Source of the DNA: an uncultured Alphaproteobacteria bacterium | Lineage (GTDB): Bacteria; Pseudomonadota; Alphaproteobacteria; HIMB59; GCA-002718135 | NCBI GenBank assembly: GCA_902560675.1 | Contig: CACEMP010000005.1 | Location: 8,253-72,252 of the forward strand | DNA: 64,000 nt | Reading direction: 5' to 3' | Part shown: one piece after another, positions 30,259-42,784 of the stretch | Layout of the letters: every line of letters starts with the position of its first letter | Position numbering within the stretch: the stretch's first letter is position 1 | Translations under genes and position numbers: made by a program | Notes under the pieces: model-generated | What the model saw: only the letters and a program-made list of their open reading frames with translations | What the model was told of the DNA's origin: nothing | The model's database searches: none

Positions 30259-31239
30259 TTAATTTTTTCTTTTCTGAATCAATGCATAAATTGTTACAGC
30301 TATTGTTATCATTAGACCATTAATAAACTGAACGTAAAAACCTGATAAACCAAGTGCTACTATACCAGATTCTAAAGATCCAATAATAAGTACACCAATA
30401 AAAGTTCCATAAACTGTTCCTTTGCCACCAAAAACAGACGTTCCACCTACAAATACTGCTGCTAGCGTTGTTAACATCAATCCAGAACCTTGAGTTGGCC
30501 AAAAGTATAACATTTCATACATAGTAAAAATCCCAGCTAATGCTGAAAAAAATCCAAGTTGTACAAAAGCAATTATTTTTACTCTATCAACATCAATTCC
30601 CATCATTTGCGCACTTGCTTTATTATCTCCAACAAAGTGAATGTGATTACCAAATTTATGATAGCGATATACCCATTGCATTAATCCAGTAAGTATAACA
30701 AACCAAATAAATTGAGCTGGAATAGTATCAAATAATTTATCAACGAATATTGTGTGATGCCATGTTCCGTCTGCCTCATCAACTATTGCTATACCGCTTC
30801 CTTGTGAGATTACATTTACTAAACCTCTCCAAAAGAATAATGTTCCAATTGTAGCTACGATTGAAGGAATTCCTATTTTTGTAACTAACAAACCATTTAC
30901 TAACCCTGCAAACATACCTAATGCAGTAGCTAGAGCAAATGATATGAAAAAATTTCCGTCTGTGGAAGTTAACAACATTCCAAAAGTCAGAGATGTTATT
31001 CCTACTATAGATGGAAATGATAAATCTATCTCACCAAGAGTAACAACAAAAGTAGCTGAAATTGCTATGATACCAAAGAAAGGCATTGATTGCATAAAAG
31101 CTCTGTATATTGGAAATCTTGTAAACACATGAGTCGCTCCAAAAAAGTAAATTAAAAAAAGTACAATTGCAATTATTGTAATACTAATTTCTAATCGATG
31201 AGTTTTAACAAAATAACTATTTAATATTCCACTCAACAT
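30259..31239 (-). CDS. sugar ABC transporter permease (CUT2/RbsC-FrcC type)
   Basis: 326 aa polytopic protein with 'GEIDLS' and 'GGTSVFGGKGTV' blocks. Confidence 0.85.
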   Translation of the reverse strand: MLSGILNSYFVKTHRLEISITIIAIVLFLIYFFGATHVFTRFPIYRAFMQSMPFFGIIAISATFVVTLGEIDLSFPSIVGITSLTFGMLLTSTDGNFFISFALATALGMFAGLVNGLLVTKIGIPSIVATIGTLFFWRGLVNVISQGSGIAIVDEADGTWHHTIFVDKLFDTIPAQFIWFVILTGLMQWVYRYHKFGNHIHFVGDNKASAQMMGIDVDRVKIIAFVQLGFFSALAGIFTMYEMLYFWPTQGSGLMLTTLAAVFVGGTSVFGGKGTVYGTFIGVLIIGSLESGIVALGLSGFYVQFINGLMITIAVTIYALIQKRKN

Positions 31240-32007
31240 TTATGCTTCAACTTTAATTTTTCCTGATTCATGTAATTGAATCATTTTCTTAACTAATTCT
31301 TCTCTAGATATTTCATTTTTTAAAAATTCACCTACAACTTCTCCTCTATCTAAAATAATAAATCTATCTGCAGCTCCATAAACATGAATTATATTATGAT
31401 CGATAAATATAGCTGACTTATTTTCATTTTTTAAACCTTTGACGAAGTTTAATACTTTTTCAGTTTCTTGAATAGATAAACCCATAGTAGGCTCATCTAA
31501 TACAATTAAATCTGAATTGAAATACAATGATCTTCCAAAGGCAACACCTTGTTTTTCACCACCAGATAAACCCATAACTTGAGAGTCGACAGTGATTGCT
31601 TTTGAAGTAAAACCTATATAGTTCCTTAATATTTTTTCTGCTTCTTTTCGTTGTTGTTTAATGTTTAAAAAACCTAAAGAATTTGTAATTTCTCTTCCAG
31701 CAAAAATATTTCTATAAAGTTCTTGTTGATCACATAAAGCTCTTTCTTGATACACTGCTTCAATACCCATTTTTCTTGATTGTGAAACTGATTTAATCTC
31801 AACTTCACTTTCTTTAAAAAAAATTTTCCCAGAGTTTGGTCTATGTACGCCCGTAATAACCTTAATAAGTGTTGATTTCCCAGCTCCATTATCCCCAATT
31901 AAGGCGACAACTTCTCCTTTATTTATTGTGATGTTTACATCTTTAAGTACTTTGACATTGCCAAAGTTTTTATAAATATTTTCCAGTTTTAAAAGCTGTT
32001 CAGACAT
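31240..32007 (-). CDS. sugar ABC transporter ATP-binding protein with a single NBD (FrcA-like)
   Basis: Walker A 'GDNGAGKST', signature 'LSGGEKQ' and Walker B 'LIVLDEPT'. The track starts at TTG 32019, but the ATG at 32007 (MSEQLL...) avoids the hairpin. Confidence 0.85.
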   Translation of the reverse strand: MSEQLLKLENIYKNFGNVKVLKDVNITINKGEVVALIGDNGAGKSTLIKVITGVHRPNSGKIFFKESEVEIKSVSQSRKMGIEAVYQERALCDQQELYRNIFAGREITNSLGFLNIKQQRKEAEKILRNYIGFTSKAITVDSQVMGLSGGEKQGVAFGRSLYFNSDLIVLDEPTMGLSIQETEKVLNFVKGLKNENKSAIFIDHNIIHVYGAADRFIILDRGEVVGEFLKNEISREELVKKMIQLHESGKIKVEA

Positions 32008-32013
32008 AAATGA

Positions 32014-32042
32014 TTTCAAGCCTGCTATTTGCAGGCTTGAAA
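32014..32042 (-). terminator. intercistronic stem-loop between the SBP and ATPase genes (partial terminator, mRNA stabiliser or RBS occluder)
   Basis: TTTCAAGCCTGC-TATTT-GCAGGCTTGAAA, a 12-bp perfect stem that ends 7 nt before the ATPase ATG on the minus strand. Confidence 0.5.
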
Positions 32043-32051
32043 AATAAAATT

Positions 32052-33032
32052 TTATCTTATTTGAACAGCAGCTAATGGAGCAATTGCTTCCACATTCTCT
32101 GCAGTTACAAAAGCTGCACCAGTATCCATAGCAAGTCCTGCCATTCCATATTTAGTACTTAAGAATAGTTGTACAATTGGAATGTATCCTTGAATGAAAG
32201 GTTGTTGATCAATTACTACATCTATGTAGCCAGAATTTATTCCATCTACAATTGGAGCAGATAAATCAAAACCAGCACCACATACTTCTTCAGTACCATG
32301 ACCAGCTGCTTTCATGTAAGTTGGTAAACTTGCAGTTAAACCACCATGGTCTGTAATTGCCATTTTTATATCTGGGTTTGCACTGTAAGTTGAAACATAC
32401 ATTGGTGTACCTTGAGAGGCATCAGAGTTAACATTATCTGGGATTTCTTGATAAACAACTTCAACACCCATATCTTCAACACCTGCTATCGCACCCTTTG
32501 TTCTTTCACCTCTATTTGGCATACTTGCAAGTCCCCAAATAAATGCTTTATCTCCAGCTTGTAGGCCACATACTTCAACAGCTTTTTTTCCTAAGTTATA
32601 ACCAGCATCAAATAGATCTGCACCTGCATAACCAAAACCTTCAGTTTTGTACTCTGCTTCTAAATCAGGTAGAGGTGTATTCATTGTTGTGATTACAATA
32701 CCCATTTCTCTTGCCTCTTTAATAATTGGTCTCATAGCTTCATCGCCTGGAAAACCATATATTGCAATTCCATCAGGCTGCAGTGCAACTGCTTCCTTGA
32801 ATTGTTTAATCATTATTTCTGAGTTCCATTGTGACCAGTAGTAATCAACATCACATCCTGTATGTTCAGCAGCTGCAACTGCTCCGTTATAAACAATTGT
32901 TCCAAAGGGTCCACCTTCTGGTCCACCTGGAAAAAATATGAATTTTTTGTCACAAGAATAGTCATTCTTTGCAATTGCTGAACCTGCAGTAAATGCGAAG
33001 CATACAGCAATAAAAGTTAAAAGTTTTTTCAT
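32052..33032 (-). CDS. periplasmic sugar-binding protein (type I PBP)
   Basis: 326 aa with signal peptide '...GSAIA/K'. A strong RBS (GGGGGA) is present, and the composition is noticeably richer in G+C and Ala/Gly than the neighbours. Confidence 0.85.
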   Translation of the reverse strand: MKKLLTFIAVCFAFTAGSAIAKNDYSCDKKFIFFPGGPEGGPFGTIVYNGAVAAAEHTGCDVDYYWSQWNSEIMIKQFKEAVALQPDGIAIYGFPGDEAMRPIIKEAREMGIVITTMNTPLPDLEAEYKTEGFGYAGADLFDAGYNLGKKAVEVCGLQAGDKAFIWGLASMPNRGERTKGAIAGVEDMGVEVVYQEIPDNVNSDASQGTPMYVSTYSANPDIKMAITDHGGLTASLPTYMKAAGHGTEEVCGAGFDLSAPIVDGINSGYIDVVIDQQPFIQGYIPIVQLFLSTKYGMAGLAMDTGAAFVTAENVEAIAPLAAVQIR

Positions 33033-33177
33033 TATTCCCCCAATAATTTAAAATTGTGAGTAAATTATATGTAAAAATCTAAATATTACAAACTTAATTT
33101 AATAAATATTTTGTTATAGTAAGTTACTTGAATATTTTCTTATTTAGAATTAATATTAAATCTACATTCAAAATCTT

Positions 33178-34014
33178 ATGAAAAGAAAAAAATTGACAGT
33201 ATATGATTACTTAAGATCAAAAGGCAAAAGACAACTTAGTGCATTGTTTGTCCATAATGCTGATGAAGCCAGAGCTGCTGAGGAAGCAGAGATCGATATC
33301 ATTTGTACTTCACATGATTATCCTCAATTCGGAATATACAATTCATTTGAAGAATTAAAAAGAATTCGTGAAGCTGCTCCAAATTGTTTGATGCAAACAG
33401 GTGGAGCAATTACACCAGCTTCTGAATATGAAGCTTTAAAGGTATGTCATAAATATTTAGAGATTGGCACAGATGTTATTTATGGAGGTACATGGAGTTA
33501 TAAATGGATCAAAGCTTTAAGAGAAGAAAATGTACCAATAAATAGCCACGTTGGTCTAGTACCTGGTAAAGCAACATGGATTGGTGGTTTTAGAGCAATC
33601 GGTAAAACAGCTGATGAGGCTATTGGAGTATTGAGGCATACACTAGAATTACAGGAGGCTGGAGCTATCGGAGTGGAACTAGAAGTTGTACCTCCAAAGG
33701 TAGCAGAGATAATTACAAAAAAAGTCGACATTATAACATTATCTATGGGTAGTGGATCGGGTTGTGATGGACAATATCTATTTGCAAATGATGTTCTTGG
33801 TTACACTGGTTATAACGGTGGTCATATCCCAAGACATGCTAGAATTTACAAAGATTTTAAAAAAGAGTATGAAAGATTACAGGAAGAAAGAATTCATGCT
33901 TTTAGAGAATATCATAAAGATACAGTTGAAAAAAAATTTAATGATCCAAAAATAACTGTTGATATCGATAGTAGTGAGTTTGAAAATTTTCTAAAATTAG
34001 CAAATAAATATTGA
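33178..34014 (+). CDS. PanB-like protein (ketopantoate hydroxymethyltransferase fold), apparently degenerate at the metal site
   Basis: 278 aa. It is colinear with PanB blocks: 'AAPNCL', 'SHVGLVP', 'GAIGVELEVVP', 'SMGSGSGCDGQYLFANDVLGYT' and 'GHIPRHA'. The VGDS and 'ADLPF' Asp positions read 'CTSH' and 'QTGGAI'. This alignment is from memory. Confidence 0.55.
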   Translation: MKRKKLTVYDYLRSKGKRQLSALFVHNADEARAAEEAEIDIICTSHDYPQFGIYNSFEELKRIREAAPNCLMQTGGAITPASEYEALKVCHKYLEIGTDVIYGGTWSYKWIKALREENVPINSHVGLVPGKATWIGGFRAIGKTADEAIGVLRHTLELQEAGAIGVELEVVPPKVAEIITKKVDIITLSMGSGSGCDGQYLFANDVLGYTGYNGGHIPRHARIYKDFKKEYERLQEERIHAFREYHKDTVEKKFNDPKITVDIDSSEFENFLKLANKY

Positions 34015-34070
34015 CCAAGATTTAAAAAAAACTGTTTTATTATTAAATAATTTTATTATAATTGTTAAAA

Positions 34071-35051
34071 ATGGACGTAAATTTAAATACTTGGTATCGT
34101 TGTACCATCGATAAAAAAGAGTTTAAAAAACTTTGTAAGAAATCTGACTTCCAAGGTTTTAAGCACATGATAATTTATTTTTCTGCTTTAATATTTTTTG
34201 GATATTTAGCTTACGCAACATGGGGTACTTGGTGGTGTGTATTATTTTTTTTAATCTATGGAAATATTTGGGGATGTGCTGATGCTATTTGGCACGAAAC
34301 TGGTCACAGAACAGCATTTAAAAGTAAATTCTGGAATGATTTTTTCTATTATATTGCAAGTTTTATGGATAATTTTGAACCTATAAGATGGAGGCATTCA
34401 CATTTTCATCATCACTCACATACTATTTTTACAGATCCATTAGATTTTGAAATACATGTTCAAAAGCCAACTGATTTAATTATGTTTTTTTCTTGGTATA
34501 TCCCTTTTTCAGGCTTCATATTTTTTACAAAATCTCTTCATTGGGAGACTTTAAAACATGCATTTGGAATAACCACAGATGTTATGAGAGTATGTATTCC
34601 AAAAAGTGAAATATCAAAATGTAGGTGGTCTGCTAGAAGCCATGTTTTTATTTGGATTGCAACCATTATTGTTTCGATTTATCTTCAATCATGGTTACCA
34701 ATGCTATTTATAGTTCTACCAAACTTTTATGGTAAAACACTAATCTCACTTTTTGGTTTAACACAACATGCTGGTCTTCAAGAAAATATTAAGGACCATC
34801 GTTATACAACAAGAACAGTAAAACTTAATCCAATTTTTAGTTTCCTTTATTGGCAAATGGAATACCACATTGAACACCATATGTTTCCACAAGTACCATC
34901 TTACAATTTACCAAAATTACATGAAATGTTGAAAGGTCAAATGCCACCAGCAAGAGTTGGATTATGGGGTGCGTATAAAGAAATAATACCTGCACTTTTT
35001 AAACAAGCTAAAAATCCTGAATATAAAATTCCTCTATCAATCCCTGCGTGA
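34071..35051 (+). CDS. membrane fatty-acid-desaturase/hydroxylase-family di-iron oxygenase (MocD/AlkB-like His boxes)
   Basis: Three His boxes are present: 'HETGHR', 'HSHFHHHSH' and 'HIEHHMFP'. There are four or more TM segments. The track ORF starts at TTG 34062; the ATG is at 34071. Confidence 0.75.
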   Translation: MDVNLNTWYRCTIDKKEFKKLCKKSDFQGFKHMIIYFSALIFFGYLAYATWGTWWCVLFFLIYGNIWGCADAIWHETGHRTAFKSKFWNDFFYYIASFMDNFEPIRWRHSHFHHHSHTIFTDPLDFEIHVQKPTDLIMFFSWYIPFSGFIFFTKSLHWETLKHAFGITTDVMRVCIPKSEISKCRWSARSHVFIWIATIIVSIYLQSWLPMLFIVLPNFYGKTLISLFGLTQHAGLQENIKDHRYTTRTVKLNPIFSFLYWQMEYHIEHHMFPQVPSYNLPKLHEMLKGQMPPARVGLWGAYKEIIPALFKQAKNPEYKIPLSIPA

Positions 35052-35944
35052 AACAAGCAGAATTATTTTTAGATTGCAAAAATATATTAGGTGAAGGAAT
35101 AACTTGGTCACAATTTGATCAAACTCTTTATTGGTTGGATATTCCAATGCCCTCAAAACTTTATAAGTATTCATTCGAAAAAAATAAAACAACAGAATTT
35201 GAAATGCCTGAAATGATAACTGCATTAGCTGTTCGACAAAACAATGATATTCTAATTGCTTCACATAATGGTATAAATAATTTTTCAATAAAAGAAAAAA
35301 AATTCAATCAACTCTTTAAATTGGAACCTGAAAAAAATCAAAACAGATGTAATGATGGTGCAGCAGATTTTCTTGGAAATTTTTGGGTTGGTACTATGCA
35401 AAATAATATTGCACCAGATGGAACTAGTATAGATATTAAGGAAAACTCAGGCGCGATATATTCTATAGATAAAAACTTTAATTTAATTAAACATGAAGAT
35501 AACATTGGTGTATCAAATACATTTGCATGGAGTCCAAATAACGATAAATTTTATACCACTGACACCTTAACTGGGGTTATTGATGTTTATGACTATGATT
35601 ATAACAATTTGAAAATTTTAAACAAAAAAGAATTTGCTAAATTTGACAGAGGTTATCCTGATGGATCAACAGTTGACTCAGAAGGTTTTTTATGGAGTTG
35701 TCGTTGGGATGGATCATGTGTAGTTAGATTCAATCCTAATGGAGATGTTGATACAGTTGTAGAAGTTCCTGTACCAAATGTTACAAGTTGTACATTTGGA
35801 GGTTCTGACCTTAAAACTTTGTTTATAACTACTGCACGAATGGCAACATCTAACGACAATCTAAAAAAATACCCATTAGCTGGAGGAATTTTTGCATATA
35901 ATTCTCCAGTGAAAGGTAAACTGGATTTTAAATTCGGTTCTTAA
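35048..35944 (+). CDS. SMP-30/gluconolactonase/LRE-family sugar lactonase
   Basis: 298 aa with 'LGEGITW', 'RCNDGAAD', 'SNTFAWSP' and 'PDGSTVDSEGFLW'. A GTG start overlaps the upstream stop (GTGA). Confidence 0.85.
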   Translation: MKQAELFLDCKNILGEGITWSQFDQTLYWLDIPMPSKLYKYSFEKNKTTEFEMPEMITALAVRQNNDILIASHNGINNFSIKEKKFNQLFKLEPEKNQNRCNDGAADFLGNFWVGTMQNNIAPDGTSIDIKENSGAIYSIDKNFNLIKHEDNIGVSNTFAWSPNNDKFYTTDTLTGVIDVYDYDYNNLKILNKKEFAKFDRGYPDGSTVDSEGFLWSCRWDGSCVVRFNPNGDVDTVVEVPVPNVTSCTFGGSDLKTLFITTARMATSNDNLKKYPLAGGIFAYNSPVKGKLDFKFGS

Positions 35945-35946
35945 AA

Positions 35947-36744
35947 ATGAAAAAAAGATTTCAAGATAAAGTTGTAATAGTAACTGGAGCTGGCTCAGGT
36001 ATAGGTGAAAGAACAGCAGAGAGATTTGCAGAAGAAGGAGCAAAAGTTACCATAGCTGAGTTAGATGAGAAAGCTGGGAAAAGAGTTCAAGAAAATATAA
36101 ATAAAACTGGGGCTAATTCTTTGTTTATTAAAACAGATGTCGCAATCTATGAATCTGTTAATCAAATGGTTGAAAAAACTATAAGTAGTTTAGGATCACC
36201 AGATATTCTTATTAACAATGCAGGAATAAATGTTTTTAGTGAGCCTCTTAAAATGCCTGATTCAGAATGGAAAAGAGCTTTTTCTGTGGATTTAGATGGT
36301 GTCTGGTATGGATGTAAAGCAGTTTTACCACACATGTTAGATAAATCTAAAGGTTCAATTGTAAATGTTTCATCTGTTCACGGTTTTCAAATAATACCTA
36401 ATTGTTTTCCATACCCTATAGCAAAACATGGAGTTATAGGTTTAACACGAGCTTTAGCAGTTGATTATGCAGCAAAGGGAATTAAAATAAATTGTATTTC
36501 TCCTGGTTATACTGAAACACCAATTTTAGATAGATTTTTTAATACTAAACCTAATCCAGCTGAAGCAAGAAAAGAAGCTGAATACAGACAACCAATAAGA
36601 AGAATGGGTACTACAACAGAAATAGCAAACGCAATTTTATTTATGTCTTCAGACGAATGTAATTTTATGATTGGTGCTAATATTATTGTAGATGGAGGAA
36701 TTACACTTAAGATACATGAAAATGATGATACCGGAGCTGATTAA
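35947..36744 (+). CDS. SDR family oxidoreductase (candidate sugar 1-dehydrogenase)
   Basis: 265 aa with 'TGAGSGIG', 'NNAG' and the catalytic 'YPIAKHG' (YxxxK). Confidence 0.85.
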   Translation: MKKRFQDKVVIVTGAGSGIGERTAERFAEEGAKVTIAELDEKAGKRVQENINKTGANSLFIKTDVAIYESVNQMVEKTISSLGSPDILINNAGINVFSEPLKMPDSEWKRAFSVDLDGVWYGCKAVLPHMLDKSKGSIVNVSSVHGFQIIPNCFPYPIAKHGVIGLTRALAVDYAAKGIKINCISPGYTETPILDRFFNTKPNPAEARKEAEYRQPIRRMGTTTEIANAILFMSSDECNFMIGANIIVDGGITLKIHENDDTGAD

Positions 36745-36747
36745 TTT

Positions 36748-37902
36748 GTGAAAGTTGAAAACATTCAACTTTACTATCTTTCAATGCCTGAAATTCTAGA
36801 CGAGGCTGATGGAAGTCAAGATGCGCTTGTTGTTAAAGTAGAAGCTGGAGGTTATGAAGGTTGGGGTGAGTGTGAAGCTTCACCATTAACATCTATTTCT
36901 AATTTTATATGTCCAAAATCTCATTCAGCTGCTAATCCAATAAGAAGTTCTATTGTTGGTGAAAATATAAATGATTTAAGTGATATAAAAAAAATTATCA
37001 CCAGAGTTAAAAATAGATCTTTAATGATTGCTCAAACACCACATACATTTTCTGGTATAGAGGTTGCCTTACTAGATCTTTTATCAAAAAAAGAAAGTTG
37101 CCCAATTTATTCATTATTAGGTATGAATAAAACAATTCCTAAAATTGCATATGCTTCAGTACTCTTTGGTAAAACACCTCAGGAAACTTACAATATCGCT
37201 AAAAATCTTATTAACAAAAATTTTAAGGCAATAAAGTTTGGATGGGAAAACTTTGGTTTAAATATTAAAACTGATGAAAACCATCTTGTAGCTGCAAGAG
37301 ATGCAATTAAAAATGAAGCTGAATTAATGATAGATGTAGGTGCCATCTGGGAAACAAATATAGATGAAGCAGAAAAAAGAAAAAAAATTTTACAAGATGC
37401 AAAAATCACATGGTTAGAGGAACCATTTTATTCAGATGCTTTTTATGAGTATAGCAAGCTTTCCGAAATAACTAAACTTCCATTAGCTGGAGGTGAATCA
37501 TGTCATTCTATTGAATCAGCAAAAAACATGATAAGATATGGAAAAGTTAAATTTATTCAAATTGATGCTGGCATTGCTGGCGGAATAATAGCTGGAAAAG
37601 AAATATGTGATTTTGCAGAAAAAAATAATGTGCAATATGTCAATCATACATTTACATCCCATTTACAACTTTCATCATCTTTACAGCCTTATGTTAGTTC
37701 TACAAAAAGTAAATTTGCCGAATTTCCTCAGCAATTAAAATCTTTAGCATGGGATTTAACAGAAAATCATATTAGCATGGATGAAGATGGTTTTATAAAC
37801 GTTCCGGAGGATGTTGGTCATGGAATAAAAATTAATCAAAGTGCTTTAGATCAATACATTGTTGATGTAGAAATATTTGTTAATAAGAAAAAAATTTTTT
37901 AA
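36748..37902 (+). CDS. enolase-superfamily (mandelate racemase/muconate lactonizing) acid-sugar dehydratase
   Basis: 384 aa with 'GWGECEA', 'MIDVGA', 'WLEEP' and 'IQIDA' metal-ligand blocks. GTG start. Confidence 0.75.
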   Translation: MKVENIQLYYLSMPEILDEADGSQDALVVKVEAGGYEGWGECEASPLTSISNFICPKSHSAANPIRSSIVGENINDLSDIKKIITRVKNRSLMIAQTPHTFSGIEVALLDLLSKKESCPIYSLLGMNKTIPKIAYASVLFGKTPQETYNIAKNLINKNFKAIKFGWENFGLNIKTDENHLVAARDAIKNEAELMIDVGAIWETNIDEAEKRKKILQDAKITWLEEPFYSDAFYEYSKLSEITKLPLAGGESCHSIESAKNMIRYGKVKFIQIDAGIAGGIIAGKEICDFAEKNNVQYVNHTFTSHLQLSSSLQPYVSSTKSKFAEFPQQLKSLAWDLTENHISMDEDGFINVPEDVGHGIKINQSALDQYIVDVEIFVNKKKIF

Positions 37903-37904
37903 TA

Positions 37905-39080
37905 ATGAAAATAATTGATATTAAAACAACAATTGTCAACGCGGAAATGCGTAATTGGGTATTTGTAAAAGTTATTACAGATAAAGACCTATATGGCTGG
38001 GGTGAGGCAACAGTAGAATGGAAAACAAGAGCCGTAATAGGAGCAATTGAAGATTTAAAGCCTTTATTAATTGGAAAAGATCCAAGAGATATAAAACAAA
38101 ATTTTCAAATAATGACAAAACATGGTTTCTGGAAACTTGGCATTATTGGAATGTCAGCTGTCAGTGGTATTGAACACGCACTTTGGGATATTCTTGGTAA
38201 AAGTTTAAATGTACCTGTCTGGCAATTACTTGGTGGAAAAGTTCGTAACAAAATAAAAATTTATACTCATTTAGGAATGGGAGATATGAATGCAGTTTAT
38301 AAAGATACAATGGAGATAAATAAATTAAATGAACATGCATTAGCCCTTTTAGAAAAAGGTTATAAAGCATTTAAGGTTGTATTTATTCCTTTCACACATC
38401 ATACAAATTCACTAAAAAATTTAGACAAGGTAAATCAATTAATGTCATCATTGCGAAATGTTGTTGGCAATGAAATTGATATTATGGTTGATTTCCATGG
38501 AAGATGTGCCTCTGGTAAATCTGCTATTCAATACATAAAGGAGCTAGAGTCGTATAACCCTCTTTTTGTAGAGGAACCTATTTTACCTGGTGATAATAAA
38601 ACTTTACTTCAGGTTAAAAATTCAATTAATTGTCCACTTGCTACAGGAGAGAGATTAATAGGACATCAAGAATTTGAAGAAATCATTTCAAATCGCATTG
38701 TTGATATAATTCAGCCAGATTTAAATCATTGCGGTGGTTTATTAGAAGCTAAATACATTGCAGCAGCAGCTTCGATTGCAAATATAGGAGTTGCTCCTCA
38801 TAATCCAAACGGTCCAATCGCAGGTGCAGCTGCGTTACACTTTGCATGTTCAACCACAAATCATATAATTCAAGAAGTAATGGATAAATCTGTTCCTTGG
38901 TATGATGATGTTATTTCATCAACACCTGTTGAAAGAGAAAAAGACCATTGGAAAATACCGACTAGAGCAGGTTTAGGAATTGAAGTAAATGAAAAAGAAG
39001 CAGAAAAATATCCATTTAAACAAGAAATAATTCCTACAACTGACGCCTATCTCGAAGATGGAACAGTAGTTGATTGGTGA
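37905..39080 (+). CDS. galactonate-dehydratase-like enolase-superfamily dehydratase
   Basis: 391 aa with 'NWVFVKVITD..GWGEAT', 'MVDFHGR', 'FVEEP', 'IIQPDLNHCGG' and 'APHNP'. Confidence 0.8.
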   Translation: MKIIDIKTTIVNAEMRNWVFVKVITDKDLYGWGEATVEWKTRAVIGAIEDLKPLLIGKDPRDIKQNFQIMTKHGFWKLGIIGMSAVSGIEHALWDILGKSLNVPVWQLLGGKVRNKIKIYTHLGMGDMNAVYKDTMEINKLNEHALALLEKGYKAFKVVFIPFTHHTNSLKNLDKVNQLMSSLRNVVGNEIDIMVDFHGRCASGKSAIQYIKELESYNPLFVEEPILPGDNKTLLQVKNSINCPLATGERLIGHQEFEEIISNRIVDIIQPDLNHCGGLLEAKYIAAAASIANIGVAPHNPNGPIAGAAALHFACSTTNHIIQEVMDKSVPWYDDVISSTPVEREKDHWKIPTRAGLGIEVNEKEAEKYPFKQEIIPTTDAYLEDGTVVDW

Positions 39081-39976
39081 TCAATATAAATAAAATAGAA
39101 GGAATCTTTCCAATCCTTTACACTTTTTTTAATAAAAATAATTCCATTGACTTTAAATTAATGGAAGATCAAATTAAATTAATTTTCGAACAACGCTGTC
39201 ATGGAATAGCAGCTCTTGGTTTGGCTACTGAAGTTAACAAATTATCATTTAAGGAAAAAATAAAAATTATAGAATTATTATCAGATAATACTCCAGCAAA
39301 GAAACCAAAAGCAATAACAATACAATCTAAAAATTACAAAGAATATATAAAATTAATTGAAATTTCAAAATCAAACAAAATAGATTGGTTAATACTCCAA
39401 CCAATGATAAAAAAAAATACTACAGACAAAGATTGTTATAATTTTTTTAAAAAAATAATTCCAACAACTTCAGGAACTTTGACAGGCATCCAAAATGCTA
39501 AGGAATATATAGGTGTAGGATTGACAACAAATCAAATAAATAAATTATACAAACGTTTTAACAATTTTAGAGCAATAAAAGGCGAAGCTTCATCTTATTT
39601 AATGCAAAAGGAATTAATGGAACTTCCAAAAGACCTTACTGTGTTTAATGGTCGAGGAGGGCAAGAGATTGTTGATAATTTAATAATTGGTTGTAAGGGT
39701 ATTGTTCCTTGCTTAGATGGATCTGATAAGTTTGTAAAAATATTTCAATTTTTTAAGCAAAAAAAATTAATTAATGCTGAAAATGAATATAGGAATATGC
39801 TTCCAAATATTGTTTTCATTATGCAATCAATTGACTCTTTAGTATGTTACGGTAAGAGAGTATGTGCATTTAGAATGGGAGTAAAAAATGTTTATGATCG
39901 TAAACCTTTTCTTAAACCAACTGATTTTGGAATTAAGAAATCAAAAAATATTGCAAAATCTTTAGGATATTTCTAA
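39074..39976 (+). CDS. DHDPS/NAL-family class I aldolase (candidate 2-keto-3-deoxy-sugar-acid aldolase)
   Basis: 300 aa with 'GIFPILYTFF..N.IDF', 'GIAALGLATE' and the Schiff-base region 'FRAIKGEASS'. A TTG/GTG start overlaps the upstream stop. Confidence 0.6.
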   Translation: MVININKIEGIFPILYTFFNKNNSIDFKLMEDQIKLIFEQRCHGIAALGLATEVNKLSFKEKIKIIELLSDNTPAKKPKAITIQSKNYKEYIKLIEISKSNKIDWLILQPMIKKNTTDKDCYNFFKKIIPTTSGTLTGIQNAKEYIGVGLTTNQINKLYKRFNNFRAIKGEASSYLMQKELMELPKDLTVFNGRGGQEIVDNLIIGCKGIVPCLDGSDKFVKIFQFFKQKKLINAENEYRNMLPNIVFIMQSIDSLVCYGKRVCAFRMGVKNVYDRKPFLKPTDFGIKKSKNIAKSLGYF

Positions 39977-41709
39977 TGACAAAAAAAAATAAATTTAGAT
40001 CGTCAAATTGGTATAACTCTAAAGATCATAAAAGAGATACTTTTGTTCATAGAGGATGGATGAGAAATCAAGGACATCCAAACCATTTGTTTGATGGTAG
40101 ACCAGTCATAGGTATATGTAATACTTGGTCTGAATTGACACCTTGTAATGGACACTTTCGAGAAATAGCTGAGTCAGTTAAAAAGGGAGTTTATGAAGCT
40201 GGGGGTTTTCCATTGGAGTTTCCTGTTTTTTCAGCGAGTGAGTCAAATTTAAGACCAACAGCAATGTTGTTTAGAAATCTTGCTAGCATGGATGTAGAAG
40301 AAGCAATAAGAGGAAATCCTATAGATGGGGTAGTCTTACTAATGGGTTGTGATAAAACAACACCGTCACTTCTCATGGGTGCTGCAAGTGTTGATTTGCC
40401 TACAATAGGTGTATCAGGTGGACCAATGCTTAATGGACATCATAGAGGAGAAACAATTGGTTCTGGAACGGGTGTTTGGCGTCTGGATGCAGATTTAAGT
40501 GCAGGAAAAATCACAGAAGATGACTTCATTGAAGCTGAGATTTCTATGAGTAGATCTAAAGGAAATTGTATGACTATGGGCACTGCTTCCACAATGGGAA
40601 GTATGGTAGAAGCACTCGGTATGTCATTACCTCATAATGCTGCAATACCAGCAGTTGATGCAAGAAGATATTCGCTTGCGTACATGTCAGGAAAAAGAAT
40701 TGTTGATATGGTAAAAGAAAACTTAATAATGTCCAAAATTGTTAACAAGAAATCATTTGAAAATGCAATTAAAGTAAACGGTGCTATAGGTGGATCTACA
40801 AATGCTGTAATACACTTAGCAGCAATTGCAGGAAGATTGGAAATTGATTTAAAATTAAGTGATTGGGAAAAATGTGGTAAGGATATACCAACATTGGTTA
40901 ATCTACAACCTTCAGGAAAATATTTAATGGAAGATTTTTATTACGCAGGCGGTGTTCCTGTTGTGATTAAAAGATTAATAGAAAAAAATTTACTTAATAA
41001 TGATTCACTTACTGCAAATGGAAAAACTATATTTGAAAATAATAAAAATGCTAAATGTTGGAATGATGATGTAATTAAAAACTTTGAAAAACCATTAGTA
41101 AATGATGGAGGAATAAAAATTTTGAGAGGCAATATTGCACCTGATGGTGCAATCATCAAACCATCTGCAGCTACGCCTGAATTAATGAAACATAAGGGAA
41201 AAGCTGTAGTGTTTGAAAGTGTAGAAGAGTTTCATGAAAAAATTGATGATCCAAATTTAGATGTAGATCAAAATTCAATATTGGTTTTAAAAAATTGTGG
41301 TCCAAAAGGATATCCTGGTATGGCAGAAGTAGGAAATATGAGATTGCCTCAAAAATTACTTAAAAGAGGAATTAAAGATATGATTAGAATTTCAGATGCT
41401 AGAATGAGTGGTACAGCTTATGGGACTGTAATACTCCATACTGCACCTGAAGCAGCTATTAAAGGACCTTTGGCTGCAGTTCAAAATAATGATATGATTG
41501 AAATTGATGTTGAAAGAGGAACAATGAATGTGCTTCTTGATGATTCTATAATTAAAAGTAGACTTAAAAATTATGAGCCTATTCTACCAGAAATAAAAAG
41601 TGGTTATCAAAAAATGTATATTGATCATGTAACTCAAGCAGATACTGGTGCTGATTTAGATTTTTTAGTTGGAAAACGTGGCTCAGAAGTAAAAAGACAT
41701 AGTCATTAA
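39976..41709 (+). CDS. IlvD/Edd-family dehydratase (pentonate/aldonate dehydratase type)
   Basis: 577 aa with 'GCDKTTPS', 'GNCMTMGTAST' and 'ISDARMSGT'. Its length matches the xylonate/arabonate dehydratase subgroup rather than Edd. Confidence 0.85.
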   Translation: MTKKNKFRSSNWYNSKDHKRDTFVHRGWMRNQGHPNHLFDGRPVIGICNTWSELTPCNGHFREIAESVKKGVYEAGGFPLEFPVFSASESNLRPTAMLFRNLASMDVEEAIRGNPIDGVVLLMGCDKTTPSLLMGAASVDLPTIGVSGGPMLNGHHRGETIGSGTGVWRLDADLSAGKITEDDFIEAEISMSRSKGNCMTMGTASTMGSMVEALGMSLPHNAAIPAVDARRYSLAYMSGKRIVDMVKENLIMSKIVNKKSFENAIKVNGAIGGSTNAVIHLAAIAGRLEIDLKLSDWEKCGKDIPTLVNLQPSGKYLMEDFYYAGGVPVVIKRLIEKNLLNNDSLTANGKTIFENNKNAKCWNDDVIKNFEKPLVNDGGIKILRGNIAPDGAIIKPSAATPELMKHKGKAVVFESVEEFHEKIDDPNLDVDQNSILVLKNCGPKGYPGMAEVGNMRLPQKLLKRGIKDMIRISDARMSGTAYGTVILHTAPEAAIKGPLAAVQNNDMIEIDVERGTMNVLLDDSIIKSRLKNYEPILPEIKSGYQKMYIDHVTQADTGADLDFLVGKRGSEVKRHSH

Positions 41710-41734
41710 TATAGATTTAAAAATAACAGAATAA

Positions 41735-42784
41735 ATGAATAGTAATTTCGTTCGATTATCAGTTAGTGAATTAGTTGAAAAAATAAATAAAATTCCAAGA
41801 GTAGATTTAGCACAGCTTCCAACGCCTTTAGAATTTGCTCCAAATATATCAAAAGAGCTAGATATAAATCTTTATATTAAAAGAGACGATTGTACAGCTC
41901 TTGCATTTGGTGGTAACAAAACAAGACATTTAGAATTTATAATGGCAAAAACATTGTCAGATAACTATGACTGTATTTTAACTGGTGCATCTTCTCAATC
42001 CAACTTTTGTCGTCAAGCTGTTGCAGCTGCAAATAAATTAAATTTAGAGAGTTACTTGGTATTAATGCATGGTGTTAAAGGCAAAGTAATGCAAGGTAAT
42101 TTTTTACTTTACAATATTTTAGGAGCAAATGTTGATGTCGTTGAAGGAGAAGATTTAGAACAAATACCAAAACACCTAGATAAAAAATATAAACAATTAA
42201 TTGATAACGGCAAAAAACCTCTCCTAATATATGGCGGTTTTGGAGAAGAGGACACTATTCTAGCTGGAATTAGTTATACAAATGCAATGGCTGAAATGGA
42301 TTTGCAAATGAAAGAACAAAATTTTTTGGCTGATCATTTGTTTGTAACTGCTGCTAACATGACACAAGCTGGTTGTGAATTAGGTGCAAAAATTTTAGGT
42401 TGGCCAACTCGTATCCAAGGTGTATCTCCTGTATATTGGGAAATGAATATCAAAAAAGATATAGCAAGAATATGTAATGAAGGCGCAAAAATGCTTGATA
42501 TAAATCTAGAGTTTTCAGATGATATGATTAATCATGACAATAATTACGTAGGAGAAAAATATGGTGCTGCCACAGAAGAGGGAATTAGAGCTATGAAACT
42601 ACTTGCTAAAAAAGAAGGAATAATTTTAGACCCAGTCTATACATCAAAAGGTTTTGCAGCTCTTATTGATTATGTTGAAAAGGGAATAATTAAAAAAGGT
42701 GAAAAGGTAATTTTTATGTTTACTGGTGGTAGCCCTGCAGTTTTTGCATATAATCAAGAGATAACAAATAATCCTACTCTATAA
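41735..42784 (+). CDS. PLP-dependent ACC deaminase/D-cysteine desulfhydrase-family enzyme
   Basis: 349 aa with 'FGGNKTRHLEF' (PLP lysine), 'DPVYTSKG' and 'FMFTGG'. Confidence 0.8.
   Translation: MNSNFVRLSVSELVEKINKIPRVDLAQLPTPLEFAPNISKELDINLYIKRDDCTALAFGGNKTRHLEFIMAKTLSDNYDCILTGASSQSNFCRQAVAAANKLNLESYLVLMHGVKGKVMQGNFLLYNILGANVDVVEGEDLEQIPKHLDKKYKQLIDNGKKPLLIYGGFGEEDTILAGISYTNAMAEMDLQMKEQNFLADHLFVTAANMTQAGCELGAKILGWPTRIQGVSPVYWEMNIKKDIARICNEGAKMLDINLEFSDDMINHDNNYVGEKYGAATEEGIRAMKLLAKKEGIILDPVYTSKGFAALIDYVEKGIIKKGEKVIFMFTGGSPAVFAYNQEITNNPTL

Follow-up and report, generated by a model that had tools for sequence, protein, structure and literature searches.

Enzymes and gene clusters that resemble parts of the locus analysed here have been described in several settings. 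PanB (EC 2.1.2.11; structures 1M3U, 3VAV, 1OY0, 3EZ4 and 1O66), the pantothenate enzyme, is a TIM-barrel protein in which six residues are strictly conserved, including Asp84, Lys112, Glu114 and the Asp of the VGDS motif (D46 in the numbering used there) (PMC13488298). The mocDEF genes of Sinorhizobium and Rhizobium are treated as catabolic genes for rhizopine, 3-O-methyl-scyllo-inosamine (PMC10107442), and a pinitol-rich root exudate induced mocDEF homologues (PMC5789663). Their products are a membrane His-box oxygenase, a Rieske-type ferredoxin and a FAD reductase, which are associated with sugar or cyclitol ABC importers. To our knowledge, the chemistry of MocDEF rests on genetics rather than enzymology. 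In marine Bacteroidota, the haem P450 CYP236A works with a ferredoxin and a reductase to demethylate 6-O-methyl-D-galactose; the oxidative removal of the O-methyl group makes this methylated algal sugar accessible and yields formaldehyde as a by-product. This formaldehyde is handled by general detoxification pathways, and we know of no dedicated C1-capturing partner of CYP236A. Pterin carriers take up the carbon of an oxidised methyl group, without release of free formaldehyde, in the folate-binding GcvT-fold modules of dimethylglycine oxidase, sarcosine oxidase and TMAO demethylase, and in Fae, the H4MPT formaldehyde-activating enzyme, but these serve flavin oxidases or methylotrophy and not di-iron or 2OG oxygenases. 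Finally, the L-arginine gamma-hydroxylase GntB of guanitoxin biosynthesis (NF041365) is a membrane enzyme of the FA_desaturase family that acts on a small polar metabolite.

We analysed a 64,000-nucleotide stretch of DNA from an uncultured alphaproteobacterium (hereafter, the window), in which a nine-gene catabolic operon (33178-42784) is divergent from a sugar ABC importer and begins with a PanB-like gene and an oxygenase gene. Both of these ORFs were confirmed at the positions given in a previous sequence-only reading. The features of the region are as follows.

30259-31239, minus strand: ABC importer permease (BPD_transp_2, Pfam)
31240-32019, minus strand: ABC importer ATPase (ABC_tran, Pfam)
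32052-33032, minus strand: periplasmic sugar-binding protein (Peripla_BP_4, Pfam)
33033-33177, no strand: AT-rich divergent intergenic region of 145 bp, from the sequence
33178-34014, plus strand: PanB-like protein (P0001), 278 aa, with a PanB TIM-barrel fold (profile searches, alignments and AF2 model)
34071-35051, plus strand: MocD-like membrane di-iron oxygenase of the FA_desaturase family, 326 aa from the probable ATG (PF00487 and His boxes)
35048-35944, plus strand: SMP-30/gluconolactonase-family lactonase (PF08450, 249.7 bits)
35947-36744, plus strand: SDR oxidoreductase, candidate aldose 1-dehydrogenase (NF005469, 336.9 bits against a cut-off of 306)
36748-37902, plus strand: enolase-superfamily (MR/MLE) acid-sugar dehydratase-like protein (profile matches)
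37905-39080, plus strand: galactonate dehydratase-type MR/MLE enzyme (NF010624, passed with 328.2 against a cut-off of 311)
39074-39976, plus strand: DHDPS-family protein, candidate 2-keto-3-deoxy-aldonate aldolase or dehydratase (profile matches)
39976-41709, plus strand: IlvD/Edd-family dehydratase (subfamily NF004784, passed with 906 against a cut-off of 539)
41735-42784, plus strand: PLP enzyme of the D-cysteine desulfhydrase / ACC deaminase / CuyA family, the last gene of the operon (profile matches)

The divergent arrangement of the importer genes and the operon is kept in relatives. Promoters are presumably located in the intergenic region at 33033-33177, beside which there is no regulator gene. 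The periplasmic sugar-binding protein matched a single NCBIfam model, that of the rhizopine SBP, for which it scored 83 bits (cut-off 420). As predicted from profiles, all four enzyme types of non-phosphorylative aldose oxidation are encoded in this one operon (the SDR, the SGL lactonase, two MR/MLE and one IlvD-type dehydratases, and the DHDPS-family protein) with intergenic gaps of -7 to +26 nt. The IlvD/Edd dehydratase also scored close to the L-arabinonate dehydratase model (827.6 against a cut-off of 882).

The PanB-like protein shares its fold with PanB, from which it differs in much of the active site. Its AF2 model had a pLDDT of 92.1, and the best PDB matches of the model were the PanB structures 3VAV and 1M3U (E-values of 7e-19 to 2e-17, TM 0.67-0.72); compared with PanB structures overall, the TM was ~0.7 and the sequence identity was 24-26%. 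PF02548 (Pantoate_transf) matched it with 121.4 bits, over residues 82-254 only (profile positions 91-256 of 259), and the protein scored below the NCBIfam cut-offs of both PanB equivalogs (93.4 against 207.55 for TIGR00222 and 108.9 against 272 for NF001452). Residues were mapped by alignment to E. coli PanB (1M3U) and to the canonical PanB of the same genome. Both alignments agreed with the sequence-only reading, which had described the first gene as colinear with PanB, with CTSH and QTGGAI at the sites of the Mg-binding aspartates and the ELEVVP block kept. At the VGDS position, CTSH replaces Asp45 with Ser and Ser46 with His (Ser45 and His46 of the PanB-like protein); at the ADLPF/DMPF position, QTGGAI replaces Asp84 with Gly (Gly75); and at the VK(I/L)E position, DVIYGG replaces Glu114 with Tyr (Tyr102), while the counterpart of Lys112 is Val100 or a gap depending on the alignment. 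The Mg2+ site residues Asp45, Asp84 and Glu114, which are missing from the whole sister family described below as well, are thus lost together with the substrate-binding residues Ser46 and Lys112, so that the four strictly conserved PanB residues named above and Ser46 are all missing. On the other hand, His136 (SHVGLVP) and Glu181 (VELEVVP) of PanB are retained as His124 and Glu169, and the strand 7 and 8 motifs G-x-G, D-G-Q and h-D (motifs as in PMC13488298) are kept.

A canonical panB with intact VGDS, DMPF and KLE motifs is located on another contig of the same genome (C7) and scored 274.5 bits to PF02548. Judged from these comparisons, the PanB-like gene is not the pantothenate enzyme of the genome because the canonical panB is encoded elsewhere; the sequence-only reading had considered that role unlikely from the altered Mg-binding positions. 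The same reading had called the protein degenerate, a term that does not hold: a degenerate PanB or pseudogene was rejected, as the altered positions are common to a family whose conservation extends across members of 30-81% identity. A profile of this sister family separated its members (at least 270 bits) from true PanBs (at most 171 bits). In an alignment of 30 full-length members with 30-81% identity, His124, Glu169, Asp197, Asp205 and His220 were invariant, and Glu167 and the motif P-R-H220-A-K were further conserved. Compared with PanB, the family has gained a conserved ExE, the PRHAK motif and a C-terminal extension, and it forms a separate clade. Its genes are located in catabolic operons, and a true panB is present elsewhere in the genome.

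The sister family was present in 132 of the 151 genomes of the window's order, with at most seven copies per genome, and is also carried by rhizobia and Rhodobacterales. Up to seven paralogues occurred in genomes of 1-1.6 Mb, where they fell into deep, context-specific clades of a quick tree. The metagenomic representatives P0136, P0148 and P0149 were on contigs too short or uninformative to contribute context. In databases, the family carries the pantothenate-enzyme label and a pantothenate GO term in hundreds of genomes and plasmids, S. meliloti pSymB among them, and this annotation is almost certainly wrong. The searched literature on MocD/E/F, on pinitol demethylation and on oxygenases of SAR11 and AEGEAN-169/HIMB59 did not describe a PanB-like partner, and a paper on pinitol use by a beetle symbiont named no bacterial demethylase of the PanB-like/oxygenase kind.

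The second gene of the operon was confirmed as an integral-membrane di-iron His-box protein. Its ORF opens with a TTG at 34062, the probable start codon is the ATG at 34071, and the stop overlaps with the beginning of the lactonase gene. PF00487 matched it with 123.9 bits (cut-off 29.7), and the three His boxes are HETGH (aa 78-82, 34293-34307), HSHFHHHSH (aa 112-120, 34395-34421) and HIEHH (aa 269-273, 34866-34880), with hydrophobic stretches at residues 36-54, 58-77 and 194-220. Its scores for the DesA/DesB equivalogs were only 30.6 (NF052549) and 25.3 (NF052548), each against a cut-off of 500, and it had no BLAST similarity to another FA_desaturase gene of the same genome (contig C1). Its best NCBIfam match, GntB (NF041365), reached only 34 bits where the cut-off is 380. 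As GntB hydroxylates an amino acid in a biosynthetic pathway, the window oxygenase is not its orthologue. It was 81% identical to the oxygenase heading a cassette of reductase and Rieske genes in relatives, 38-41% identical over its full length to rhizobial cassette oxygenases and ~40% identical to the one on S. meliloti pSymB. The oxygenase of one such cassette (L058) was 94.5% identical to an R. etli CIAT 652 gene annotated as mocD; the comparison covered genes so annotated, the experimentally studied MocD being that of L5-30. By profile scores and identities, the window oxygenase appears to group with MocD-like oxygenases rather than with lipid desaturases, and the MocD precedent invoked by the sequence-only reading was therefore apt.

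No Rieske ferredoxin or ferredoxin reductase is encoded within the window, as had been noted before; genes for both were found on contig C23 of the same genome. In relatives, the ferredoxin and reductase genes adjoin the orthologue that is 81% identical to the window oxygenase, and cassette ferredoxins match the NCBIfam MocE family. The locus thus differs from mocDEF in that its redox partners are unlinked and its oxygenase heads a sugar-acid operon with a lactonase and dehydratases instead of an inositol pathway. The PanB-like gene is a fourth component outside the published description of mocDEF, yet in rhizobia it lies just downstream of mocF-like genes.

The pairing of the two genes, whose recurrence elsewhere bears on the sequence-only reading, proved very widespread. 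In large alphaproteobacterial genomes, an oxygenase gene was found in the PanB-like cassette at 19 of 20 loci, in which an FA_desaturase or FA_hydroxylase gene was accompanied usually by a Rieske ferredoxin gene and sometimes by a reductase gene, followed by the PanB-like gene. Within the window's order, an oxygenase was encoded within two ORFs of 25 of 30 PanB-like copies, while oxygenase genes account for only ~0.5% of the ORFs of this genome. In close relatives at 80% identity, the gene order was oxygenase, reductase, Rieske, PanB-like, oxygenase, FA_hydroxylase, lactonase and IlvD. The cassette was also found on S. meliloti pSymB, near 607-611 kb in strain 2011, and on Rhodobacterales plasmids, and on R. 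etli pA its genes are annotated as mocD, mocEa, mocFa and 'probable ketopantoate hydroxymethyltransferase'. The partner oxygenases belong to three unrelated classes, namely FA_desaturase (MocD-like), FA_hydroxylase and Fe/2OG PhyH, usually with a MocE-type Rieske ferredoxin, and what they have in common is hydroxylation chemistry, not fold. By its sequences and gene neighbourhoods, the PanB-like family is a sister family of PanB, undescribed in the literature searched, and a near-constant partner of MocD-type, FA_hydroxylase and PhyH oxygenases. The observations that the sequence-only reading had named as contrary to it, an intact PanB as the sole panB, clustering with lipid desaturases and absence of the pair elsewhere, were in no case what we found.

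The linkage has exceptions. The PanB-like gene was missing from some otherwise syntenic clusters of this genome (C21 and C28) and from a Burkholderia MocD/MocE cassette, and oxygenase-free copies were found beside a GH4 gene (contig C14 of the same genome) and beside ThuA and GFO_IDH_MocA genes with an aldehyde dehydrogenase gene (L082).

The PanB-like cassettes were found in varied catabolic contexts. Their neighbours included iolG, iolC, iolD, a 'rhizopine-binding protein' gene and purU. In one context, genes for a corrinoid protein and an MtaA-like methyltransferase adjoined those for a xylose isomerase and a fused oxygenase-Rieske-reductase, and another had gamma-butyrobetaine-dioxygenase-like and carnitine-dehydrogenase-like genes. 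A PanB-like remnant was located directly downstream of mocF in a probable moc/mos rhizopine locus. With functions in the metabolism of inositols, sugars and quaternary amines and in corrinoid methyl transfer, the neighbours of the family point to methyl-bearing substrates. Of the readings of the gene pair, one that involves methyl or one-carbon chemistry has the best support.

The specific explanation we favour, which is quite possible though short of probable, is oxidative O-demethylation of an imported methyl-sugar with delivery of the hydroxymethyl carbon to tetrahydrofolate. The membrane di-iron protein would be a MocD-type monooxygenase receiving electrons from the MocE-type Rieske ferredoxin and FAD reductase encoded on the other contig, and it would hydroxylate a methyl group of the imported sugar, most likely an O-methyl ether, to a hemiacetal (R-O-CH2OH). 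The PanB-like protein would then move the hydroxymethyl (formaldehyde-level) carbon onto tetrahydrofolate, yielding 5,10-methylene-THF and freeing the demethylated sugar; it would have discarded the half of the PanB site that holds Mg2+ and the 2-oxo acid and kept the other half. The SDR, lactonase, dehydratases and aldolase encoded in the operon would then take the free aldose through the non-phosphorylative oxidation route. This explanation does not call for a stable complex of the PanB-like protein with its oxygenase, and a single mode of docking is unlikely for partners with three different folds. Demethylation is suggested by the MocDEF precedent and the gene contexts, and folate as the acceptor by PanB ancestry and the pattern of residue retention, in which the retained half of the site would be the folate site; the literature searched yielded no published folate-binding site of PanB. 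Of the C1/keto-acid chemistry that the sequence-only reading had tentatively assigned to the PanB-like protein, the keto-acid part is unlikely, since the residues for the keto acid and Mg are precisely those that have disappeared. The proposed pair would resemble CYP236A in its physiological role while being unrelated to that P450, and would resemble the GcvT and Fae systems in trapping the carbon on a pterin, with a PanB TIM barrel in place of the GcvT or Fae fold and, compared with Fae, THF in place of H4MPT.

Several observations were counted against this explanation. In most accounts of PanB, Glu181 acts as the base for enolisation of the keto acid, and its retention without a keto-acid site requires another role. 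The dispensability of the gene in C21, C28 and Burkholderia and the oxygenase-free copies were counted in the same way, as was the finding that this 82% complete genome contains FolD but neither FTHFS nor PurU above cut-off. SAR11-style C1 oxidation to formate is therefore not evident. The deep, context-specific paralogue clades with up to seven copies speak against a generic enzyme joining free formaldehyde to THF; they require recognition of an organic substrate, a property that would suit a folate-independent enzyme working on the product of the oxygenase just as well.

Such an enzyme forms the first alternative, which we consider rather unlikely but worth serious attention. Here the oxygenase would act on an imported sugar or cyclitol, and the PanB-like protein would be a folate-independent lyase, isomerase or epimerase whose retained Glu/His pair enolises a hydroxylated or keto product, for example in an elimination or rearrangement of a keto-sugar or inosose. 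The invariance of the catalytic-base Glu and of the His fits this role, as do the substrate recognition implied by the clades in such small genomes and the oxygenase-free copies beside enzymes that make keto-sugars. However, conservation has been lost in just that half of the barrel with which PanB binds the organic acid and Mg2+, and the association with three unrelated oxygenase classes, in sugar, cyclitol and amine settings alike, is more readily accounted for by a shared by-product than by a shared organic product. Moreover, neighbouring TIM-barrel genes already fill the inosose isomerase and dehydratase roles.

It is improbable, but chemically closest to the ancestral PanB reaction, that a C-methyl group (present, for instance, in C-methyl inositols and in branched or deoxy sugars) is hydroxylated and then removed as a hydroxymethyl group to THF by the reverse PanB reaction, a retro-aldol cleavage. 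The AlkB/FA_desaturase and FA_hydroxylase families are best known for the oxidation of C-methyl groups, and dehydrogenases able to supply the adjacent carbonyl (iolG, GFO and SDR) are frequent neighbours. Against this, the retro-aldol cleavage of PanB needs a Mg2+-stabilised enolate, for which all three metal-site residues and Lys112 are gone, and the MocDEF precedent concerns an O-methyl ether.

The loss of the classical catalytic residues and the dispensability of the gene in some syntenic clusters could also be explained by a non-catalytic scaffold, assembly factor or regulator of the oxygenase/ferredoxin system. We regard this as very improbable, given that the invariant polar residues occupy barrel-end positions and that the partners comprise soluble PhyH and two membrane families, for which a shared docking surface is unlikely. 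A search for fused, longer forms of the PanB-like protein found none, including fusions to oxygenases, which is weak evidence in the same direction. The plain annotation, a pantothenate PanB and a lipid desaturase clustered by chance with sugar genes, agrees with the database names ('3-methyl-2-oxobutanoate hydroxymethyltransferase' and 'fatty acid desaturase') but was rejected as next to inconceivable given the missing metal and substrate residues and missed equivalog cut-offs, the canonical panB, the oxygenase scores of 25-31 bits against desaturase cut-offs of 500, and the conservation of the gene pair in catabolic operons across orders.

In sum, the PanB-like family indicates an entry into sugar and cyclitol catabolism by way of an oxygenase, a step not described in the literature searched. 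In its fullest form, the demethylation and folate-capture reading would make it the first dedicated THF-dependent enzyme family for capturing hydroxymethyl or formaldehyde-level carbon, acting as a substrate-specific partner of oxygenase demethylases, with methylated compounds as a major overlooked carbon source for the order and their methyl carbon kept as methylene-THF; this we hold to be possible, but doubtful. We know of no described enzyme for this step; a natural one would, if real, be of interest to C1 biochemistry and to synthetic methylotrophy, and the rhizobial copies of the PanB-like gene offer tractable genetics. As the family is near-universal and multi-copy in a streamlined marine lineage, its substrates must matter in the ocean carbon cycle. 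If the reading is true, the expansion of the family to as many as seven copies in genomes of 1-1.6 Mb would imply that this abundant order of marine Alphaproteobacteria draws much of its carbon from an overlooked source, namely methylated sugars, cyclitols and amines, and conserves the methyl carbon as methylene-THF instead of losing it as toxic formaldehyde.

The PanB-like gene (ORF1) and the adjacent MocD-like oxygenase gene (ORF2) head an operon of nine genes at 33178–42784, in which intergenic gaps range from −7 to +57 nt.

33178–34014, + strand: gene 1, ORF1, PanB-like protein (family assignment by Pfam/NCBIfam)
34071–35051, + strand: gene 2, ORF2, MocD-like oxygenase
Gene 3: SMP-30 lactonase
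Gene 4: SDR
Gene 5: MR/MLE dehydratase-like protein
37905–39080: gene 6, MR/MLE protein above the NCBIfam galactonate dehydratase equivalog cut-off (328.2 versus 311)
Gene 7: DHDPS-family protein
Gene 8: IlvD-type dehydratase, near the L-arabinonate dehydratase model
Gene 9: PLP enzyme of the D-cysteine desulfhydrase/CuyA family

ORF1 (278 aa) matched Pfam Pantoate_transf with 121 bits, over residues 82–254 only (profile positions 91–256), and scored well under both NCBIfam PanB cut-offs (93.4 versus 207.55 and 108.9 versus 272). The protein was aligned with E. coli PanB (1M3U) and the canonical PanB of its own genome. Against both references, the VGDS, ADLPF/DMPF and VK(I/L)E positions of PanB read CTSH, QTGGAI and DVIY, respectively, and GH(I/L)GLTP and the Glu181 strand were retained as SHVGLVP and VELEVVP. 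Six residues, D46, D84, K112, E114, H136 and E181, are strictly conserved in PanB homologues according to a 2026 study (PMC13488298), where D46 is the VGDS aspartate called Asp45 here; ORF1 has equivalents of H136 and E181 only. The genome contains three PF02548 genes: a canonical panB on contig C7 (274.5 bits, motifs intact), ORF1, and a second PanB-like gene on contig C14 that is 44% identical to ORF1. The sequence-only reading, in which the metal-site motifs were replaced by CTSH and QTGGAI, the Glu block was kept and a pantothenate role was unlikely, was thus borne out by the alignments, the missed cut-offs and the canonical panB, but its term 'degenerate' was not, because the altered residues are common to a conserved family.

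Searched exhaustively, a set of 1.8 billion cluster representatives yielded 74 clusters at E ≤ 1e-30, and the full-length members (30–48% identity) all lacked the same PanB residues as ORF1. Within the family, His124, Glu169, Asp197, Asp205 and His220 were invariant and Glu167, Asp99 and Lys15 nearly so. On a family profile, members scored at least 270 bits and true PanBs at most 171 bits, with one intermediate at 194 bits. The AlphaFold model of ORF1 (pLDDT 92) had PanB crystal structures as its best structural matches (TM ~0.7), followed distantly by members of the isocitrate-lyase/PEP-mutase superfamily. The PanB motifs retained by the family were all on strands 5–8, and the ends of strands 2–4, which form the Mg2+ and 2-oxo acid site in PanB, showed no conservation inside the family. 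Judged by these comparisons, ORF1 is a member of a distinct family and not a decayed PanB. A literature search found no description of this family. One metagenomic protein (P0123, 542 aa) carries two tandem PanB-like domains in a single chain.

The family was found in 17 of 400 sampled genomes of the phylum, all 17 from the class of the window, and with at least one copy in 132 of the 151 genomes of its order, which comprises two families with genomes of 1.0–1.6 Mb. Many genomes of the order carry 3–7 copies, often in tandem, and a quick paralogue tree resolved multiple deep, context-specific clades within these very small genomes; its rows marked 'none' for loci L058–L060, L068, L069, L071 and L076 do have the cassette oxygenase, three genes off. 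A further 269 plasmid or chromid records contained a member, mostly from Rhizobium, Sinorhizobium and Bradyrhizobium. The genes on either side of a tandem PanB-like pair in one relative (G411, L087:764–15237) encode three PhyH dioxygenases, class III and IV aminotransferases, an M81/MlrC peptidase, two BNR-repeat proteins and an MFS transporter. A copy 77% identical to ORF1 on a 9.4-kb contig of a Methanobacteriota archaeon MAG (L114, NYXO01000059.1) most likely reflects a mis-binned alphaproteobacterial contig.

Whether the ORF1/ORF2 pair co-occurs elsewhere had been left as a question by the sequence-only reading, and it does recur. In large alphaproteobacterial genomes, the PanB-like gene closes the cassette in 19 of 20 loci, after an FA_desaturase or FA_hydroxylase gene that is usually accompanied by a Rieske ferredoxin gene and sometimes by a reductase gene. 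Across 20 loci of the window's order, an oxygenase immediately adjoins 20 of 30 PanB-like genes and lies within two ORFs of 25. Such oxygenases make up ~0.5% of the ORFs of the window's own genome. The partners in this order include Fe(II)/2-oxoglutarate PhyH and both membrane families. On S. meliloti pSymB the order is LacI, fatty acid desaturase, MocE-family ferredoxin, FAD oxidoreductase and 'PanB', and R. etli CIAT 652 pA carries mocD, mocEa and mocFa with a 'probable ketopantoate hydroxymethyltransferase'. The cassette is followed by a sugar ABC transporter in R. etli NXC12 and adjoins iolG, iolC, iolD and a 'rhizopine-binding protein' on Marivivens, Aestuarium and Peteryoungia plasmids, with purU beside it in Peteryoungia.

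ORF2 (probable ATG at 34071, end at 35051) matched FA_desaturase with 124 bits and has three His boxes and hydrophobic segments; the boxes quoted in the sequence-only reading are all present, and its statement that the window encodes no ferredoxin or reductase partner agreed with our search, which found neither a Rieske ferredoxin nor a reductase within the 64 kb. The only such pair of the genome is at the end of contig C23, in a moc-like cluster (L017:6409–11230) of an FGGY kinase, a xylose-isomerase-like TIM barrel (MocC/IolE-like), a GFO/IDH/MocA oxidoreductase, the Rieske ferredoxin and a truncated FAD reductase, and probably serves all MocD-like oxygenases of the genome. In relatives with a PanB-like protein 80% identical to ORF1, the order is FA_desaturase, FAD reductase, Rieske, PanB-like, FA_desaturase, FA_hydroxylase, lactonase and IlvD; the SBP and the ABC importer are encoded on the opposite strand. 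ORF2 is 81% identical to the first oxygenase of this cluster in close relatives, compared with which the operon in the window is reduced to one oxygenase and has no local redox partners.

Some loci lack one of the partners. The PanB-like gene is absent from the otherwise syntenic clusters on contigs C21 and C28 of the window's genome, whose counterparts in relatives (L086/L099 and L102/L103) do carry it, and none was found within 7 kb of a betaproteobacterial MocD/MocE cassette (Burkholderia sp. THE68 plasmid p1, L125:5764–9156; LacI, MocD-like oxygenase, Rieske ferredoxin, SDR). These absences suggest that the PanB-like protein either acts in trans or helps without being essential. The C28 (L019:186–5601) and C21 (L018:7639–11311) clusters combine sugar-ABC genes with a MocD-like oxygenase; one of the two also has a PhyH and the other an aldehyde dehydrogenase. 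The C14 PanB-like gene (L022:2737–4928) shares its orientation with a GH4 glycosidase gene and faces an SBP_bac_1 ABC importer in an oxygenase-free vicinity; its orthologue in a relative (L088) adjoins a PhyH.

MocDEF were reportedly found by Bahar et al. in 1998 to turn 3-O-methyl-scyllo-inosamine into scyllo-inosamine. On the symbiosis plasmid p_4 of R. leguminosarum bv. viciae RCAM2802 (L124:11747–12521), a PanB-like frame split by a frameshift and missing from the gene table lies 40 nt downstream of a mocF-like gene in what is probably a genuine moc/mos rhizopine locus, which also has iolE, GFO/IDH/MocA, SBP and DegT (MosB-like) aminotransferase genes. The mocDEF genes serve rhizopine catabolism and are driven by a rhizopine-inducible promoter (PMC10107442), and pinitol-rich root exudate raises their homologues (PMC5789663). 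In a sister family of the order (L094:2850–9848 and L095), FA_desaturase and PanB-like genes beside gamma-butyrobetaine dioxygenase/TmpA-like and L-carnitine dehydrogenase-like genes suggest a quaternary amine substrate; a DUF1800 and DUF1501 pair comes next. In another, metagenomic context, two CN-hydrolases precede FA_desaturase, Rieske and PanB-like genes with overlapping stop and start codons. A JGI metagenome contig (L026:3107–10011) encodes a corrinoid protein, an MtaA/CmuA-like methyltransferase, a 757-aa oxygenase fusing FA_desaturase, MocE-type Rieske and NqrF-like reductase domains, a PanB-like protein and a xylose isomerase, so that aerobic and corrinoid-type methyl-handling genes stand side by side. 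The thread common to these contexts appears to be substrates with methyl groups on O or N.

In the window, operon genes 3–8 have the enzyme types that a non-phosphorylative aldose oxidation route would require, gene 6 being the only dehydratase with a specific assignment. In the simplest pathway, a methylated aldose would be imported and demethylated, then oxidised to a lactone and hydrolysed to the acid, which would be dehydrated and split into pyruvate and an aldehyde; methyl-galactose as the substrate is only a guess.

All functional statements here rest on comparative genomics. For the PanB-like protein we tentatively favour oxidative demethylation in which the hydroxymethyl carbon would pass to tetrahydrofolate (THF), at somewhat less than even confidence, because it is this very group that ancestral PanB exchanges between THF and a carbon nucleophile and because the lost half of the site is the one activating the nucleophile, which fits a hemiacetal or carbinolamine donor requiring no enolate. 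The partner oxygenases, of three unrelated folds and serving several substrate classes, also point to a shared by-product. An unlikely but serious rival is a lyase or isomerase that would work on the oxygenase product without folate, since the context-specific paralogue clades in such small genomes imply that an organic substrate must be recognised too. Removal of an oxidised C-methyl branch by the PanB reaction in reverse has chemical appeal but is improbable with the metal site missing, and the invariant polar residues make a non-catalytic accessory role very unlikely.

[quoted passage not shown] In the genome of the window (82% complete), FolD was found but neither FTHFS nor PurU was detected, so methylene-THF, if made, would more likely feed biosynthesis than formate-level oxidation. 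Because the spontaneous reaction is so slow and we know of no enzyme for this condensation, a folate-dependent role of the PanB-like family would matter.
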